From Promethearchaeum syntrophicum (GTDB taxonomy: Archaea; Asgardarchaeota; Lokiarchaeia; Sigyniarchaeales; Promethearchaeaceae): a DNA stretch of 32,000 nt. Made by a program: the position numbers and the translations under genes. This document shows, one piece after another, positions 17,196-31,391 of this stretch; the first letter of the stretch is position 1; each line of letters begins with the position of its first letter. The DNA lies in assembly GCF_008000775.2 (NCBI RefSeq), contig NZ_CP042905.2:2040001-2072000 (forward strand). The letters are read 5' to 3'. Below the pieces are notes generated by a model. The model was given only the letters and a program-made list of their open reading frames with translations. It searched no databases and was not told the DNA's origin.

Positions 17196-18569
17196 ATGAT
17201 AAATACTATCCAAAAAAAATTCCATCCAATCGCAAGAAATTTAACCATTTTAATTATTATTATCCAAATTTTATCGATAAGTCAAATAATATTTTGGTTT
17301 CAATTAAAGCAAGAATTAACTGAATTACCAATTCTTATTTTTACTATACCCTTTCTTCTACATCTGATTTTTCTTTTCATTTCAATCTCCTCTTTAAAAA
17401 AGAATCCTTTGGATTTTCCAAAATTTTCATTAATAATATTTTTGATTGCTTTAAGTATTTCATTAATATTTAGTAGATATGGCTTTTTTGAAACGGATCC
17501 TGACATTCGGCTACATAATCTCCTAATTATAATCTTTATTTTTTATATCATTTGCATTATTGTCTATTTAATTATTTTATTCGTAAATCTGATAGAAAAG
17601 AACCAATTAATTGAGACTTTTCTTGAAGATCAAGTAGAAATGAACATAAATTCACACAAATCGATAGATTTCAATAATGCAGAAAAAATTTTAGCTATTA
17701 ACATTATAAAAATAATTAATCGAATTTTCGAGCAAAAAAGAATTAAAATATGGTGGATAAATAAAGTATATTCTGATTCTCTTTATGATTTTAATTCCAA
17801 TCACTCAAAAATATTTATAATAATCCCTAATGTGGTCAAATACTTTGCGGAAAAAGCCAAAATTGATGAAAAAATTAAATTTGATGATGTTTCTTCAGAA
17901 TTAAATCTAAGTTCTTACGCACTCAAGAAGCTTCTCCAATATTTACGTGATAAATCAATATGTAATTTAAATTTAAGCCAAGATAATATGTACATTGATT
18001 TCGGTCGTTTTGTAAAAGATCAAATTGTAGATTTATCAATTCAAAATCTGGCTTCTTCTTCACCAATTCCTAATGATAATAATATTAGTAATCCAATATA
18101 TAAACAGAAAGAAGTTCAACAAAAAAGCAAAATTACTGCAGGTCTTTTTGGTATATTCCTTGGTGATTTTGGAATCCATCATTTCTATCTAGGAAACATC
18201 AGCAAAGGAATTCTTATGCTTGTTTTTTGCTGGACAGGAATCCCCGGTATTATAGGTTTAATTGAAGGAATTATGATTTTAGGCTCGTCAGATCAAGAAT
18301 TTGAAAATAAATATATTATTCTTTCTTCAAGTGCGAACTATTCTCAGAAAATTACGAATTATCATAATAATCGATCTCAATCCTCATCAAATTCAAATCT
18401 AATAAATACAGCTACTATACCATCCTCAGAGAATTTGAACCAAGATAAAAATTCAAGAGTTTCTCCTACTCTTTCAATTAAAAACTCTTTTTGTCCAAAA
18501 TGTGGAAGGAAATTAGATGGATGGTTTGAATTCTGCCCACAGTGCGGATTAAAACTACCGAATAATTAA
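17196..18569 (+). CDS. Multi-pass membrane protein with a TM2 domain and a C-terminal zinc ribbon
   Basis: The TM2-domain signature is GLFGIFLGDFGIHHFYLGNISKGILMLVFCWTGIPGIIGLIEG. The C-terminus is CPKCGRKLDGWFEFCPQCG. The N-terminal third is strongly hydrophobic. Confidence 0.6.
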   Translation: MINTIQKKFHPIARNLTILIIIIQILSISQIIFWFQLKQELTELPILIFTIPFLLHLIFLFISISSLKKNPLDFPKFSLIIFLIALSISLIFSRYGFFETDPDIRLHNLLIIIFIFYIICIIVYLIILFVNLIEKNQLIETFLEDQVEMNINSHKSIDFNNAEKILAINIIKIINRIFEQKRIKIWWINKVYSDSLYDFNSNHSKIFIIIPNVVKYFAEKAKIDEKIKFDDVSSELNLSSYALKKLLQYLRDKSICNLNLSQDNMYIDFGRFVKDQIVDLSIQNLASSSPIPNDNNISNPIYKQKEVQQKSKITAGLFGIFLGDFGIHHFYLGNISKGILMLVFCWTGIPGIIGLIEGIMILGSSDQEFENKYIILSSSANYSQKITNYHNNRSQSSSNSNLINTATIPSSENLNQDKNSRVSPTLSIKNSFCPKCGRKLDGWFEFCPQCGLKLPNN

Positions 18570-23470: not shown

Positions 23471-23836
23471 ATGAAATTAATTGTAGATGAGTGTTTAGCA
23501 AAATCATCAATTTTAGTTCTTGAAAAATTGGGAATTGAAATTCTAACAATTATTGATATTTTAAATTTTGGAAGCGAAGATGAGAAAATTTACGAATACG
23601 CTTCACTCAATCAAATTCCTTTAATAACACATGATCGACGGTTTGGGCAGATTTATTTTGAATCCTATCTTGCACCACCTTTAACTATTGTTTTGCAAAT
23701 AGTTTTTCCTTATCCAAAAGGCACAAATGAGTTGATTAAGAAATTTTTTTTAAGAATAGGAAATTCTTTCGATTTGTTTAAAGGAAAATTAGTAATTATA
23801 TCTAATAAAAAAATCCGTATTAGATCTAAAAATTAA
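23471..23836 (+). CDS. DUF5615-family PIN-like protein, a putative toxin
   Basis: MKLIVDECL...GSEDEKIYEYASLNQIPLITHDRRFG fits the DUF5615 pattern, with acidic residues at the start and the T-x-D motif. It lies 19 nt downstream of the DUF433 gene. Confidence 0.6.
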   Translation: MKLIVDECLAKSSILVLEKLGIEILTIIDILNFGSEDEKIYEYASLNQIPLITHDRRFGQIYFESYLAPPLTIVLQIVFPYPKGTNELIKKFFLRIGNSFDLFKGKLVIISNKKIRIRSKN

Positions 23837-27433: not shown

Positions 27434-27542
27434 TTTTTTTTTCCATTTTTTAGGTTTTTTTTTTTAACTATAGGTTAGATTAATCTCGTATTACTAAAAT
27501 ATTTTATAATCCTACATAAATTATTTTGCTTTGAACGTAAAA

Positions 27543-28535
27543 ATGTATCACAAATCATTCTCAGATAATCTTATTGATCAAATAAAACAAAAAAAATCAA
27601 TAATCTGCATTGGATTAGATCCTCGAATTGAAGAATCTGGTTCAAAAATTCCGCAGATTATTATGGAACGCGCAAAAAACAATTACAATGATGCAATATG
27701 GGAATTTAATAAGGAAATTATCGACCATACTTGTGAAATTACACCAATTTTTAAACCAAACATCGCATTCTATTCTAAATATAATGCGCTGGATGCCTTA
27801 AAAAAAACAATAGATTATATCCATGAAAAAAAAACTCTTGTTATACTTGATGCTAAACGTAATGATATCGGTTCCACTGCAGAAGCCTATGCTTATGCTA
27901 TTTTTGAGAATTTTAAAGCAGATGCGGTCACTTTTAATGGATATCTTGGTTCTGATGGGATTGCGCCATTTCTGAAATATGTTCCTAAAGGGAAAGGTGT
28001 GATTGTTTTACTTAAAACTTCAAATAAATCTAGTGGCGAATTTCAAGATTTGTTTTCAATATCTATTCCTGAAATTCCTCCAAGTGAAATAGAAACAACA
28101 ATAGAAAAAGGAATATTAATCCGTAATTATATTCAGATGGCCAGGTTGATAAAATTATGGGGAGAAAATCCAAAACTTGTGGGGGAAGGTAATTCTTATG
28201 GAACTTATGGTTATTCTAACATCTTAGGGGTTGTTGGCGCTACTTTTCCTGAGCAAATGAAATTGATTCGGAAAGAAATACCAAAGAATTTCATGCTAGT
28301 ACCTGGATATGGTGCACAAGGGGGAACAGCTAAGGATATAATCAACAGTGTCAATGAGGATGGATTTGGGGCCATAATCAGTGCATCTCGCTCGATTAAT
28401 TTTGCCTATCAGAAATCACCATACAAAGAAGAATTTGACGAAAATAAATTCGGTCCTGCGGCGGGAAAAGCGGCAAAAGACATGCGAGAAGCAATAAATA
28501 ATGCCTTAGAACAATCAGGAAAAATTGGATATTAA
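27543..28535 (+). CDS. pyrF: Orotidine 5'-phosphate decarboxylase, type 2
   Basis: Motifs are IGLDPR, DAKRNDIGSTAEAYA and VPGYGAQGG. I prefer the ATG at 27543 over the track's TTG at 27531. Confidence 0.88.
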   Translation: MYHKSFSDNLIDQIKQKKSIICIGLDPRIEESGSKIPQIIMERAKNNYNDAIWEFNKEIIDHTCEITPIFKPNIAFYSKYNALDALKKTIDYIHEKKTLVILDAKRNDIGSTAEAYAYAIFENFKADAVTFNGYLGSDGIAPFLKYVPKGKGVIVLLKTSNKSSGEFQDLFSISIPEIPPSEIETTIEKGILIRNYIQMARLIKLWGENPKLVGEGNSYGTYGYSNILGVVGATFPEQMKLIRKEIPKNFMLVPGYGAQGGTAKDIINSVNEDGFGAIISASRSINFAYQKSPYKEEFDENKFGPAAGKAAKDMREAINNALEQSGKIGY

Positions 28536-29425: not shown

Positions 29426-29983
29426 TCACAAAGCAGTCCAATATTGGCTTCTTCCAATTTTTTGTGTACGGATAACATGATTTGCTTCTTCTAATTGGCT
29501 CATCACACGCCAAATTTCGGAGCTAGTCATTTTGAAATACCGCCTTAATTCAGGTGTGCTTTTTTCCTGCTTTTGCAGTAGATTTACAACAATTCTTTTT
29601 ATTTCATGTTCATCTTGGGACTCCTGAGTTGGTTGTTTTTCTAATTGACGTTCTTCTTGTTCATCCATTTGCAAAATTAACCCGTCTGCAATATTACTTA
29701 ATTTATCGAGTTTCAATCCAACATTTTCTGGACGCATGAATAAGCAACATAATTCAAGACCTCGAGAAAAAGCTACAACATAAAAATCATGATACAAAAT
29801 AGCTAATGGTTGTAGTGTTTCATCTCCTCCTCTGAAACTTAAATAAAAGTTCATTAAGAAACTTTCCATGTCAAATCTAAAGTTTATTTTTTGAAACTCT
29901 TGATAGAATTTCAAAAATGGCCCCTCAACTAGATCGAAACCTATCATTCCCGCAGATAAAATACCCTTCTCATTAAAATCCAT
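29426..29983 (-). CDS. Putative longin/roadblock-like domain fused to a C-terminal winged helix-turn-helix
   Basis: The N-terminal ~105 aa show a beta-beta-alpha-beta-beta-alpha propensity pattern (ILSAGMIGFDL, PFLKFY, MESFLMNFYLSF, LAILYHDFYVVAFS, ELCCLFM). An acidic/Gln linker follows. The C-terminus STPELRRYFKMTSSEIWRVMSQLEEANHVIRTQKIGRSQYWTAL is a typical wHTH. Its start lies 2 nt after the GTPase stop. Confidence 0.5.
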   Translation of the reverse strand: MDFNEKGILSAGMIGFDLVEGPFLKFYQEFQKINFRFDMESFLMNFYLSFRGGDETLQPLAILYHDFYVVAFSRGLELCCLFMRPENVGLKLDKLSNIADGLILQMDEQEERQLEKQPTQESQDEHEIKRIVVNLLQKQEKSTPELRRYFKMTSSEIWRVMSQLEEANHVIRTQKIGRSQYWTAL

Positions 29984-29985
29984 TT

Positions 29986-30519
29986 TTATTTTCCTTGCTC
30001 CGTTAGTATTTTTATTTTTTTTTGAGTATATCTCATTAAAGTCGAAATTAATTCAATCATCAACGCCTGGTTCTTTGGATCGATTGCAACCATAGGATAT
30101 GTTTTTATTTTTAATAGGTCTTCAACACGATCAGGGGTCATATGCCCTTTAAGATCTTGTTTGTTAGCTAGACACACAATTTCACATAGATCATCATCGA
30201 TTAGATTTCTTGCGTGATCGATAATTTCCATCGTCGAAAGAACATTTTTTGGAGTCGAATCAGTAACAATAAAGATCAAATCCGAACCATGGATATATTT
30301 ACTGAGTTGTTGTTTGATGAATGCTTTTTGACCTCCAAAGTCCCAGATCTTGAAAGGATTTATGTTTGGGTCGTTTAAAGTTGCCAAATTAAAACCCATT
30401 GTAGGATTATATCTTCCTGTGATTAATTGCCCACGGATCATTTTAGAGATAGTAGTTTTACCTGTAGCTGGTGCTCCGACAAGACTGATTTTTGCAAATT
30501 TTGCAAATTTTTGATCCAT
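29986..30519 (-). CDS. Arf-like small GTPase
   Basis: G1 is GAPATGKTT. G3 is WDFGGQ, the Arf-type WDxGGQ. G4 is ANKQDL, the Arf-type NKQD. Length is 177 aa. Confidence 0.8.
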   Translation of the reverse strand: MDQKFAKFAKISLVGAPATGKTTISKMIRGQLITGRYNPTMGFNLATLNDPNINPFKIWDFGGQKAFIKQQLSKYIHGSDLIFIVTDSTPKNVLSTMEIIDHARNLIDDDLCEIVCLANKQDLKGHMTPDRVEDLLKIKTYPMVAIDPKNQALMIELISTLMRYTQKKIKILTEQGK

Positions 30520-30614
30520 AATTTTTAACTAGAGTTTACATTCTTTATATTGAGATATCATTGAGATAATATTGTGATAAGAAATAAAAAACAAACAAAC
30601 TGAGAATAACCTAA

Positions 30615-31391
30615 ATGCCGAAAGATATACTTGAATTGGTCCGTGATTTTAATTATTTAGTAAAAGATGCAATTTCTGGCCCAAATTGTATTGATCCTAA
30701 AGTGTGTCATGGAGATTGCTGCTTTATTCACATAGATATTCCAAGAATTTTAGCTCAACATTACATTGAAAAGGGTTGGGCAAGTAAAGAAGATTTCAAA
30801 CGAGGTTCAACTTTTAGCTTTGAAATTAATGTTGATTTAGACATATTAAAGTGTGTGTTCTTTTCCAAAGAGGTAAATGGTTGTTCTCTGCATATAACTG
30901 GAATGAAACCTCCACAGTGTTGGGTATATCCTACTGGTTTAGATCCTGATAAAGTAAATACATCATGTAAAAAAGCAGGTGGTTGGTTTATAAATGATTC
31001 TGTGAGTGTTAGGAACGCTAAAAATATTTTAAGTGATTATGTTTCAATGTGTCAAGCAGAAGCTATAGAAGAAAACTCTCCCGATAAGATAAATCGGAGA
31101 TTACAAGCATTATCTACAGAAAAATTTGATACCCTTACGCCAAGTAGTATTGCCGGAATTGAGGATGATTGGGATAGGTTCAAAATTTTGATAGGCGAGG
31201 GTTATAATTTAGGCGTACGATCTTTTTGTTCAAAAATTGATTGTGGGATTGAATATTTCGAGTGCCCTGTTGTGTGTGAACCTCTGAAGAAAAAATTACT
31301 AAAATTTCTTTCTGAGAAATTATCCCATTTTATTCAACAAAACGGGTTTAAATCTCAATATACATTCATGGAATTAAAAGGACAGAACTGA
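30615..31391 (+). CDS. YkgJ/UPF0153-like Cys-rich (CxxCxxCC-type) metal-binding protein with a C-terminal extension
   Basis: C..VCHGDCCF is followed by KCVFFSKEVNGCSLHITGMKPPQCWVYP. This fits the family pattern C.fl....C.iy..RP..C..yP. Confidence 0.55.
   Translation: MPKDILELVRDFNYLVKDAISGPNCIDPKVCHGDCCFIHIDIPRILAQHYIEKGWASKEDFKRGSTFSFEINVDLDILKCVFFSKEVNGCSLHITGMKPPQCWVYPTGLDPDKVNTSCKKAGGWFINDSVSVRNAKNILSDYVSMCQAEAIEENSPDKINRRLQALSTEKFDTLTPSSIAGIEDDWDRFKILIGEGYNLGVRSFCSKIDCGIEYFECPVVCEPLKKKLLKFLSEKLSHFIQQNGFKSQYTFMELKGQN

Follow-up and report, generated by a model that had tools for sequence, protein, structure and literature searches.

A conserved Asgard gene pair probably links an Arf-like GTPase switch to DNA binding

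Asgard genomes carry dozens of small GTPases resembling those of eukaryotes, along with longin and roadblock proteins, but their genes tend to be dispersed, so that hardly any of these proteins can be assigned a partner (PMC10933270). In MK-D1, the GTPase genes generally lie outside operons with roadblock or longin genes (Tran et al., PMC10933270). One locus in the 32,000-nucleotide stretch of Promethearchaeum syntrophicum DNA analyzed here (the window) raises the question of whether such a GTPase can be assigned a dedicated partner, and what output that partner might give it. At this locus, the gene for an Arf-like GTPase is followed by a gene for a protein of three parts (Table 1). We regard the pair as a variation on the GTPase plus longin/roadblock theme and as one in which a GTPase switch of eukaryotic type is probably connected to DNA binding.

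Table 1. Features of the gene pair and its upstream region, in window coordinates.
Feature	Position	Strand	Basis or detail
Arf-like small GTPase gene, 177 aa	29986..30519	minus	ORF list and Pfam Arf
Partner gene, 185 aa: longin/roadblock-like domain, acidic linker, winged helix	29426..29983	minus	ORF list
Shine-Dalgarno-like purine stretch GGAGCAAGGA	29992..30001	minus	Within the 3' end of the GTPase gene
Partner N-terminal domain, aa 1-104	29672..29983	minus	AlphaFold2 model and conservation
Partner acidic, Gln-rich linker, aa 105-126	29606..29671	minus	Charge and alignment
Partner C-terminal winged helix-turn-helix, aa 127-185	29429..29605	minus	AlphaFold2 and Foldseek
Three direct repeats, 11-bp period	30549..30579	minus	TATCACAAT at 30579, TATCTCAAT at 30568, TATCTCAAT at 30557

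The junction between the two genes is as an earlier reading, made from the letters of the window (the sequence-only reading), had described it. The ORF list and the sequence agree on a GTPase stop codon, TAA, at 29988-29986, followed by two nucleotides (AA, 29985-29984) and the partner ATG at 29983. The purine stretch GGAGCAAGGA lies 9 to 18 nt upstream of this ATG, and most orthologous junctions have GGAGG some 9 nt ahead of the start codon. In orthologs, the partner start mostly shares bases with the stop codon of the GTPase gene (ATGA) or falls 11 nt within that gene. The Shine-Dalgarno-like stretch and the close spacing of stop and start would be consistent with translational coupling, and the two genes are in all likelihood cotranscribed.

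A homolog search identified 306 partner homologs, all of about 185 aa and none of them named, and the partner is encoded in 134 species genomes. In all 83 loci fetched, the partner gene is immediately preceded on its strand by a GTPase ortholog. Among the 79 pairs that could be scored, the stop-to-start spacing is -4 in 36, -11 in 19, 0 in 9, and -1 in 5, and it reaches 15 nt or more in just 3; about 90% of the pairs overlap or are spaced by 4 nt or less. Given these counts of homologs and species genomes and adjacency in every fetched locus, the arrangement is not due to chance. The pair is kept together across lineages in which the proteins have diverged to 25 to 45% identity. Divergent members at 25 to 33% identity retain it, with the GTPase upstream (P0127, P0128, and P0144); for two others in that range (P0143 and P0131), the upstream gene is visible as a 3' end alone and runs off the contig. 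The arrangement also persists in two divergent members (P0143 and P0144) whose winged helix has been swapped for another C-terminal domain. Co-conservation of the pair in related genomes, which the sequence-only reading had put forward as something to check, is found both in the fetched loci and in divergent members.

The upstream gene had been called Arf-like from its sequence, and this assignment is borne out by a match to Pfam Arf (E=2e-17, 63.6 bits, cut-off 22.3) and by its nearest PDB relatives: among the PDB sequence matches listed, 60 of 60 are Arf, Arl, or Arf/Sar-superfamily GTPases. The protein also matches Pfam Roc (6.5e-12) and, above its cut-off, NCBIfam small_GTP. Its G1 (GAPATGKT), switch I (PTMGF), G3 (WDFGGQ), and G4 (NKQD) motifs are conserved over 78 orthologs, as judged from an alignment with an approximate human ARF1 reference sequence. 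Eukaryotic Arfs possess an N-terminal amphipathic helix and a myristoylated Gly2, which couple GTP binding to membrane binding. The GTPase encoded here has neither the long amphipathic helix nor Gly2 (N terminus MDQKFAKFAK); about 10 residues precede strand 1, and the N terminus is about 10 residues shorter than that of this ARF1 reference.

The partner alignment (A1) resolves into two conserved blocks with a variable linker between them. From an alignment of 133 sequences that includes remote members (A3), AlphaFold2 modeled residues 1 to 116 at a mean pLDDT of 89.6 and a pTM of 0.75; with 56 sequences alone, the N-terminal domain had a pLDDT of 40 to 58 and spurious helices, which the larger alignment cured. 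The modeled elements are β1 (8-17), β2 (21-29), α1 (39-51), β3 (61-63), β4 (68-74), β5 (77-83), and α2 (88-115), the last of which continues into the linker. This beta-beta-alpha-beta-beta-beta-alpha order, with five strands, is that of the longin/roadblock superfamily; it replaces the beta-beta-alpha-beta-beta-alpha pattern proposed earlier, since the model places three strands after helix 1. Residues F16, D17, G21, P22, Y47, F50, G53, P59, and F67 are invariant.

In a Foldseek search against the PDB, the best 50 matches to the N-terminal domain all belong to the roadblock/longin superfamily (LAMTOR/roadblock/longin), although the matches are weak (E of about 0.01, TM of 0.45 to 0.5). Searching the PDB with the partner, by sequence and by profile, returned nothing for this domain. 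The window protein has no N-domain match in Pfam at E<=1, and none of the 25 families that the 133 members hit most frequently at E<=10 is of longin/roadblock type; these families lie in other regions or are wHTH families. The proposal that the N-terminal 105 or so residues form a longin/roadblock-type domain is largely supported by the modeled fold, with weak structural matches and no match to a longin or roadblock sequence family.

The structural neighbors of the domain bear on whether the two proteins act together at all. They might merely be neighbors that share a promoter, with the N-terminal domain serving as the small-molecule sensor or dimerization domain of a one-component regulator; longin/roadblock-like and profilin/GAF-like small alpha/beta domains can indeed bind ligands. 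We consider this very improbable. The structural neighbors are specifically GTPase platforms, and the unbroken adjacency, the conserved stop/start overlap, and the persistence of the pair at 25 to 33% identity and after the C-terminal swap make a direct functional link hard to avoid.

Both the linker (QMDEQEERQLEKQPTQESQDEHE) and the C-terminal sequence are exactly as previously quoted. The linker had been described as acidic and Gln-rich, and acidity proves to be shared by all orthologs: its net charge is -6 in the window protein and averages -10 (range, -14 to -3) across 56 homologs, in which its length varies from 19 to 27 aa and its sequence is variable, without column conservation. In the model, its first residues form the end of helix α2.

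The C-terminal domain had been called a clear winged helix-turn-helix (wHTH), and the model upholds this with confidence (helices 125-136, 143-150, and 154-166; strands 170-176 and 179-184; pLDDT of 86 to 92). Invariant residues include R130, T143, P144, F150, W158, R172, G177, R178, and W182, and the net charge is +5 in the window protein, with a mean of +5.7 across homologs. Foldseek matched the domain to MarR, ArsR/SqrR, HlyU, and CzrA, as well as to eS25 and ScpB; matches of the ArsR type have an rmsd of 1 to 2 Å over 57 to 59 columns. By sequence, the window domain reaches only E=0.088 and 13.1 bits against Pfam HTH_5, below the cut-off of 22, and its matches to Sta1 and SdpR are weak. 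The divergent members P0127, P0128, and P0131 pass the thresholds of HTH_DeoR, HTH_11, HTH_5, and HTH_24, and across the 133 members the sole families to recur are DNA-binding wHTH families. We are confident that the predicted structure is a basic winged helix resembling prokaryotic transcription factors of the MarR/ArsR type. The wHTH fold occurs in non-DNA-binding settings too, as in eS25, NPRL2/3, and ESCRT-II.

A potential target for such a domain lies just upstream of the operon. The three direct repeats there adjoin a TATA-like ATATAAAG, 30 to 60 nt upstream of the GTPase ATG, and no other such site occurs in the window (0.03 expected; 0 of 100 shuffles reached 2 matches). Related GATATTAY repeats, defined by k-mer enrichment, autocorrelation, and a position weight matrix, occur upstream of orthologous operons across clades, including the divergent operons L085 and L089. 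Of 49 spacings between adjacent repeats, 37 are exactly 11 bp, and an 11-bp repeat pair is present in 48% of 75 upstream regions versus 0 of 1026 GC-matched controls. The matrix was trained and scored on the same upstream regions and many of the loci are phylogenetically related, which inflates the motif statistics; the 11-bp spacing is the sole repeat statistic independent of matrix training. These 11-bp-phased GATAT-type repeats are a candidate operator. In the window, they fall within a 95-bp region that the operon shares with a divergent gene at 30615, which they could serve instead.

Fusion to a winged helix of transcription-factor type, taken with the candidate operator, points to DNA binding, and not membrane traffic, as the output of this switch. 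We propose that the conserved two-gene Asgard operon encodes a small-GTPase switch and its dedicated partner, which would act as a GTPase-gated, autoregulated transcriptional switch, a reading we hold tentatively, at slightly under an even chance. The N-terminal domain, as effector, GAP, or GEF, would engage the Arf-like GTPase at its switch regions through the invariant β1-β2 hairpin (F16-D17...G21-P22) and the F50-R51-G52-G53 loop after helix 1. Longin/roadblock domains bind GTPases in this manner in MglB, Ragulator, SRX, and the FLCN/NPRL2/SMCR8 complexes. The winged helix would bind DNA, most plausibly the GATAT-type repeats before its own operon, and the nucleotide state of the GTPase would decide whether it is free to do so. 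Gating might operate by release from the acidic linker, by sequestration of the protein, or by a change in oligomeric state.

Alternatively, the partner may be of the FLCN/NPRL2/C9orf72 type and do nothing but regulate the GTPase, as a GAP, GEF, or scaffold, with the winged helix as a protein-protein or dimerization module and DNA uninvolved. NPRL2 and NPRL3 join a longin domain to tandem wHTH domains without known DNA binding (PMC3521125), and Thor and Loki genomes are reported to encode NPRL2-like longin families (bioRxiv 10.1101/2020.10.19.343400). A GP motif that lies in the loop or opens strand 2 is reported to be specific to GAP longins (PMC12290439), and G21-P22, at the start of β2 (strand 2 begins at residue 21), is present in 133 of 133 partner sequences, which fits our main proposal as well. 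The eS25 and ScpB matches of the wHTH model also fit this alternative. Against it, hhalign assigned a probability of 0.1% to the N-domain profile versus the NPRL2 longin, both as a single sequence and as an 8-sequence profile, and on that account we rejected membership in the NPRL2 family; there was also no hit to Pfam NPR2 or Folliculin. The winged helix is moreover basic and like bacterial and archaeal transcription factors in sequence, with divergent members above family thresholds, and a phased repeat is conserved in the operon's promoter region. We judge a role in GTPase regulation alone to be rather unlikely. A classical arginine-finger GAP was rejected separately: no invariant arginine was found in the N-terminal domain of the 133 sequences, which argues against this mechanism. 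Position 51 is R in 118, K in 8, and another residue in 7, and position 74 is R in 77, K in 40, N in 5, H in 4, and Q in 3.

A further alternative is a spatial or structural module, in which the partner binds DNA nonspecifically and the GTPase places or anchors the nucleoid, or another structure bound to DNA, for instance at the membrane or a cell pole, much as in MglA/MglB. Pairs of a GTPase with a roadblock/longin protein govern bacterial polarity (PMC4316618), and Asgard Arf-like proteins can associate with membranes (PMC11914678); in addition, the winged helix is replaced in two divergent members by a domain whose GLGxKR motifs look helix-hairpin-helix-like by inspection and would suggest generic DNA binding. 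This GTPase, however, is without the long N-terminal amphipathic helix of Arfs, the putative helix-hairpin-helix domain has no database support, and a conserved, operon-specific repeat fits a sequence-specific regulator better. We therefore view a spatial module as unlikely.

Beyond these alternatives, how novel is a GTPase-gated transcriptional switch of this design? The arrangement had been thought uncharacterized, and our literature search likewise found no paper describing the GTPase/longin-wHTH family, but the idea itself has precedents in NPRL2/NPRL3 (PMC3521125) and Group 3 MglA (PMC4316618). In bacterial and archaeal MglA/MglB, a small GTPase gene likewise sits beside a gene for a roadblock/longin-fold protein (about 100 to 120 aa) in a conserved operon. 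Here, in contrast, the GTPase is Arf-like (WDxGGQ, with the catalytic Gln) rather than MglA-like, and the partner has neither a Pfam Robl_LC7 match nor the roadblock N-terminal helix and adds an acidic linker and a wHTH. The Group 3 MglA systems of beta- and gammaproteobacteria place the GTPase in an operon with a protein of sensor-like domain, variable linker, and wHTH, and were predicted to link the GTPase to transcription (PMC4316618). Common to these systems (Wuichet and Søgaard-Andersen) and the present pair is a conserved operon of a small GTPase and a protein with a conserved N-terminal domain, variable linker, and wHTH. Their N-terminal domain is predicted to be receiver-like, however, and separate MglB proteins are present, whereas the present pair, from Asgard archaea, has an Arf-like GTPase and a single polypeptide that carries both the GTPase-platform fold and the wHTH.

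Among eukaryotic complexes, GATOR1 NPRL2/NPRL3, FLCN-FNIP, and C9orf72-SMCR8 likewise combine a longin-type fold, Arf/Rag-type GTPases, and an invariant GP where strand 2 begins, and NPRL2/3 also unite longin with winged-helix domains. The partner differs from these longin GAP complexes in having no NPRL2 profile similarity, no invariant arginine finger, and no DENN or NPRL C-terminal domain; its wHTH is of the prokaryotic transcription-factor type, and it is a single small polypeptide rather than a large heterodimer. The best structural matches of the N-terminal domain, Ragulator LAMTOR2/3 and the Asgard MK-D1 Roadblock proteins (5Y3A, 6EHR, 9JQ8, and 7YH1), are GTPase platforms, but these matches are weak (E of about 0.01, TM of about 0.5) and the proteins are stand-alone dimers without DNA-binding domains. 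With the Asgard ArfR/AArf GTPases (bioRxiv 10.1101/2024.02.28.582541 and PMC11914678), the GTPase shares an Arf-family core, eukaryote-like G motifs, and an Asgard host, and it differs from them in lacking the N-terminal amphipathic helix; the passages searched in those papers mention no neighboring longin-wHTH gene.

The locus is thus a rare case of one Arf-like GTPase locked to one longin-type partner, in more than 100 Asgard species. It offers a defined, small, and soluble target for biochemistry that is present in cultured Lokiarchaeum ossiferum and close relatives of Promethearchaeum. If a GTPase-gated switch is indeed what the pair encodes, it would reveal the actual role of at least one "eukaryotic signature" GTPase in an archaeon and would provide a simple model of how a longin domain reads or sets the state of a GTPase. 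In the most far-reaching version, the pair would be a GTPase-gated Asgard transcription factor in which a longin domain with a GP motif reads the Arf-like switch, the wHTH binds the GATAT repeats, and the architecture is continuous with NPRL2/NPRL3 of GATOR1. This combination we find quite doubtful; were the continuity real, longin-regulated coupling of GTPases to gene expression would predate eukaryogenesis.

Three minor observations complete the analysis. A defense system was considered and rejected, PADLOC having given nothing meaningful. The replacement C-terminal domain of P0143 and P0144, for which searches gave no match in Pfam or the PDB and no homolog, carries GLGxKR motifs and appears by inspection to be helix-hairpin-helix-like. 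Finally, an F-x4-G-P hairpin pattern is common to the N-terminal domain and NPRL2, which we record as a lead only.

The Arf-like GTPase gene in the window is followed on the same strand by a gene for a 185-aa partner protein, in which an N-terminal domain (N-domain, residues 1 to 104) is joined by an acidic linker (105 to 126) to a C-terminal winged helix (wHTH, 127 to 185). The sequence-only reading had proposed that this pair couples a GTPase to a fusion of a GTPase regulator and a DNA-binding protein. Both open reading frames, the TAA that ends the first and the two-base gap bear out the gene arrangement, and the linker and C-terminal sequences quoted there match the partner exactly.

Features of the GTPase-partner operon and of other genes in the window
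Feature	Position	Strand	Remarks
Arf-like GTPase ORF, 177 aa	29986-30519	-	stop TAA at 29988-29986
Partner ORF, 185 aa	29426-29983	-	start two bases after GTPase stop
Purine-rich Shine-Dalgarno-like stretch GGAGCAAGGA	29992-30001	-	within 3' end of GTPase gene
Three 9-mers, 11-bp period: TATCACAAT, TATCTCAAT, TATCTCAAT	starts 30579, 30568, 30557		upstream of the operon
Cys-rich protein, 258 aa	30615-31391	+	weak Pfam CxxCxxCC match (E=0.01); divergent from GTPase operon
Gtr1/RagA-like GTPase, 323 aa	26462-27433	-	Pfam Gtr1_RagA (2e-25); ~2 kb from operon
OMP-decarboxylase-like gene	27531-28535		adjoins RagA-like gene
Small protein, 122 aa	31608-31976	+	Mrr_cat / NACHT-associated inactive restriction-endonuclease domain
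DUF5615 protein	23471-23836	+	E=1e-13; separate from the GTPase-partner finding
457-aa protein	17196-18569	+	TM2 domain and C-terminal zinc ribbon; separate from the GTPase-partner finding

A survey of related genomes for conservation of the pair, as the same reading had suggested, found the two genes side by side throughout. A scan with one genome per species yielded 134 genomes with a partner relative; 80 loci were fetched and three more came from an exact look-up. An ortholog of the window GTPase lies directly upstream on the same strand in 83/83 loci (37 to 93% identity). Among the 79 complete pairs, the stop-to-start distance is -4 in 36, -11 in 19, 0 in 9, -1 in 5, +1 to +4 in 6 and at least 15 nt in 3, and GGAGG-like sequences precede the partner start by about 9 nt at the orthologous junctions. 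A rival reading would make the partner a plain one-component regulator whose only tie to the GTPase gene is a common promoter. The genes flanking the operon are kept within clades only. A DUF2070 membrane protein is encoded upstream in 44 loci. In 55 of 77 loci (e.g., L003 5594-6409) the opposite strand downstream carries the gene of a conserved, roughly 271-aa protein for which no Pfam match is recorded; it is the first, convergent gene in 53 and is followed by an RsmB/NOL1-type methyltransferase gene in 42. This clade-level synteny differs from the neighborhood in the window's clade.

The pairing extends to the most divergent family members. An Arf/Roc GTPase gene precedes the partner gene of P0127, P0128 and P0144; at P0143 and P0131 the contig breaks off within the upstream gene and keeps just its 3' end, and the P0143 fragment translates into a sequence similar to the window GTPase at its C-terminus. 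P0143 (locus L084) and P0144 (L086 3480-4061) keep the family N-domain, and a different C-terminal domain of about 80 aa, with no match in Pfam, the PDB or the protein database, replaces the wHTH. By eye, it appears to contain GLGxKR helix-hairpin-helix-like motifs.

The GTPase was correctly recognized as Arf-like: it scores 63.6 bits against Pfam Arf (cut-off 22.3), also matches Roc, exceeds the NCBIfam small_GTP cut-off, and all 60 PDB matches listed are Arf, Arl or Arf/Sar-superfamily GTPases. We aligned it with 77 orthologs and human ARF1. The motifs GxPAxGKT, switch-I PTxG, WDxGGQ (with its catalytic Gln) and NKQD are kept; the GTPase has neither Gly2 nor a long amphipathic helix at its N-terminus. 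The protein thus has an Arf-like core but lacks the part by which eukaryotic Arfs anchor to membranes.

AlphaFold2 modeled the N-domain at a pLDDT of only 40 to 58 with 56 sequences, and confidently (mean pLDDT 89.6, pTM 0.75) with a 133-sequence alignment that took in members at 25 to 33% identity. The modeled order is b1 8-17, b2 21-29, a1 39-51, b3 61-63, b4 68-74, b5 77-83 and a2 88-115. The best 50 Foldseek matches in the PDB belong exclusively to the roadblock/longin superfamily, including LAMTOR2/3 of Ragulator, the MK-D1 Roadblock structures 9JQ8 and 7YH1, the AP-3 and COPI small-subunit longins, Ykt6, TRAPP, CPLANE and BLOC-3; their scores are weak (E 0.01 to 0.09, TM 0.4 to 0.5), which the long terminal helix explains in part. 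The structural half of the earlier proposal thus largely stands, with the predicted roadblock/longin fold well supported, but sequence places the N-domain in no defined family: in the window protein it matched none, the 25 families that the 133 members hit most frequently include none for it, and PDB sequence and profile searches were empty for this domain.

In the model, the invariant residues F16, D17, G21, P22, Y47, F50, G53, P59 and F67 lie in the b1-b2 hairpin, at the end of helix 1 and in the loop after it. A 2025 survey describes a "GP motif" at the loop or start of strand 2, beside the catalytic arginine, as specific to the GAP-active longins FLCN, NPRL2, SMCR8 and C9orf72 and some Asgard longins (PMC12290439). 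GP is present in 133/133 family sequences, at exactly the place reported for those proteins. No arginine of the N-domain is invariant across the 133 sequences (position 51 is Arg in 118; position 74 is Arg in 77, Lys in 40 and otherwise variable), and comparison with a profile of homologs of human NPRL2, whose sequence was checked against PDB 6CES, gave a probability of 0.1%. For these reasons the resemblance to GAP longins is one of motif and architecture, with homology not demonstrable.

The partner family is narrow: when 1.8 billion representatives were searched exhaustively with its profile, only 31 clusters (50% identity) came up, and two of these, P0142 and P0150, are repetitive false positives. 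All 306 homologs at E<=1e-3 are about 185 aa and unnamed, carry no precomputed Pfam domain, and come from records labeled Loki-, Thor-, Hel-, Hod- or Promethearchaeota. A complete Asgard-type pair also occurs on DATKTW010000082.1, deposited as "Candidatus Nanopelagicaceae bacterium" (Actinomycetota) and most likely a mis-binned Asgard contig.

Across the family, residues 1 to 104 and 127 to 185 form strongly conserved blocks around a variable linker. The linker is acidic in every member, as had been noted for the window protein, with a net charge of -6 in the window protein and a mean of -10 over about 23 residues in the family; the C-terminal domain is basic (+5 and a mean of +5.7, respectively). 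The proposed wHTH was recovered as a winged-helix model (pLDDT 86 to 92) matching MarR, ArsR/SqrR, CzrA and HlyU, and also eS25 and ScpB. By analogy with NPRL2/3, where a longin domain and winged helices are already combined (PMC3521125), the partner might be a pure GTPase regulator whose wHTH does not serve DNA. In this domain the window protein's own matches are below threshold (Pfam HTH_5, E=0.088; NCBIfam Sta1 and SdpR). Divergent members pass the curated thresholds of HTH_DeoR, HTH_11, HTH_5 and HTH_24, and DNA-binding wHTH families recur most frequently over the 133 members, which favors, short of proof, a role in binding DNA rather than proteins alone. In P0139 (182 aa) the family winged helix (E=9e-18) is embedded in an otherwise different protein with a hydrophobic N-terminal segment and several Cys-x2-Cys pairs, suggesting reuse of the module outside the family.

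The three phased 9-mers upstream of the operon adjoin a TATA-like ATATAAAG, and the window has no second element of this kind (0.03 matches expected; 0/100 shuffles reached 2). In orthologous upstream regions 8-mers including GATTCATA (31/76 versus 6/1278 GC-matched controls) and ATATTATC (23 of 76 versus 20 of 1278) are enriched, and self-similarity peaks at offset 11. A weight matrix (consensus GATATTAY), trained and scored on one set of mutually related loci, gives 1.6 matches per upstream region versus 0.14 in controls, clustered 70 to 90 nt ahead of the start codon. The strongest part of this evidence is the 11-bp spacing, which matrix training did not impose: neighboring matches are exactly 11 bp apart in 37/49 cases, and an 11-bp pair occurs in 48% of 75 upstream regions versus 0/1026 controls. 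The divergent operons at L085 and L089 have similar phased GATAT or ATATCAC units. On the simplest reading, the winged helix encoded by the operon itself would bind the repeats as its operator. Since the repeats lie in a 95-bp region shared with the divergent Cys-rich gene, they could regulate that gene too. Relatives of that gene accompany the operon in 9 loci, for the most part upstream and on the other strand; the two placed are in Promethearchaeum (L004) and Lokiarchaeum ossiferum (L001 and L002).

Pairs of GTPases with roadblock or longin proteins are well known, as in MglA/MglB, Rag-Ragulator and the longin GAPs. In the best-supported picture of the present pair, the GTPase switch would be read by, or regulated through, the longin-type N-domain, which the acidic linker would tether to a DNA-binding winged helix, and the phased repeats would make the operon autoregulated. 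The two proteins would form a physical complex, the partner acting as effector, GAP or GEF, and the nucleotide state of the GTPase would control DNA binding. What the analysis shows is the gene arrangement with its conservation, the folds, the charges and the cis-element. A rival reading would make the pair a nucleoid- or DNA-positioning module. The functional hypothesis of the sequence-only reading, now with a candidate cis-element, is plausible if unproven. That reading knew of no characterized case; full-text search likewise found no published description of this family or of its particular fusion, which is not proof of absence, but the idea has precedents in NPRL2/3 and in a transcription-linked GTPase system predicted in proteobacteria by Wuichet and Sogaard-Andersen, where a protein with a receiver-like domain, variable linker and wHTH is encoded beside MglA and MglB (PMC4316618). 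In Asgard genomes, Liu et al. describe NPRL2-like longins alongside numerous families of the roadblock/longin type, and Tran et al. report that MK-D1 GTPase genes generally lie outside operons with roadblock or longin genes (PMC10933270). A GTPase and regulator so cleanly paired are rare in Asgard archaea; the output of this module is likely on DNA, and it occurs in cultured or near-cultured lineages.

The nearby RagA-like GTPase is extended at its C-terminus by about 120 aa that likely form the roadblock-type domain known from Rag GTPases. In L. ossiferum (L002) RagA-like and OMP-decarboxylase-like genes are paired in the same way, about 4 kb away from the ortholog of the operon, and the same neighborhood (L001 1531-1914) holds a gene similar to the 122-aa Mrr_cat-type gene.
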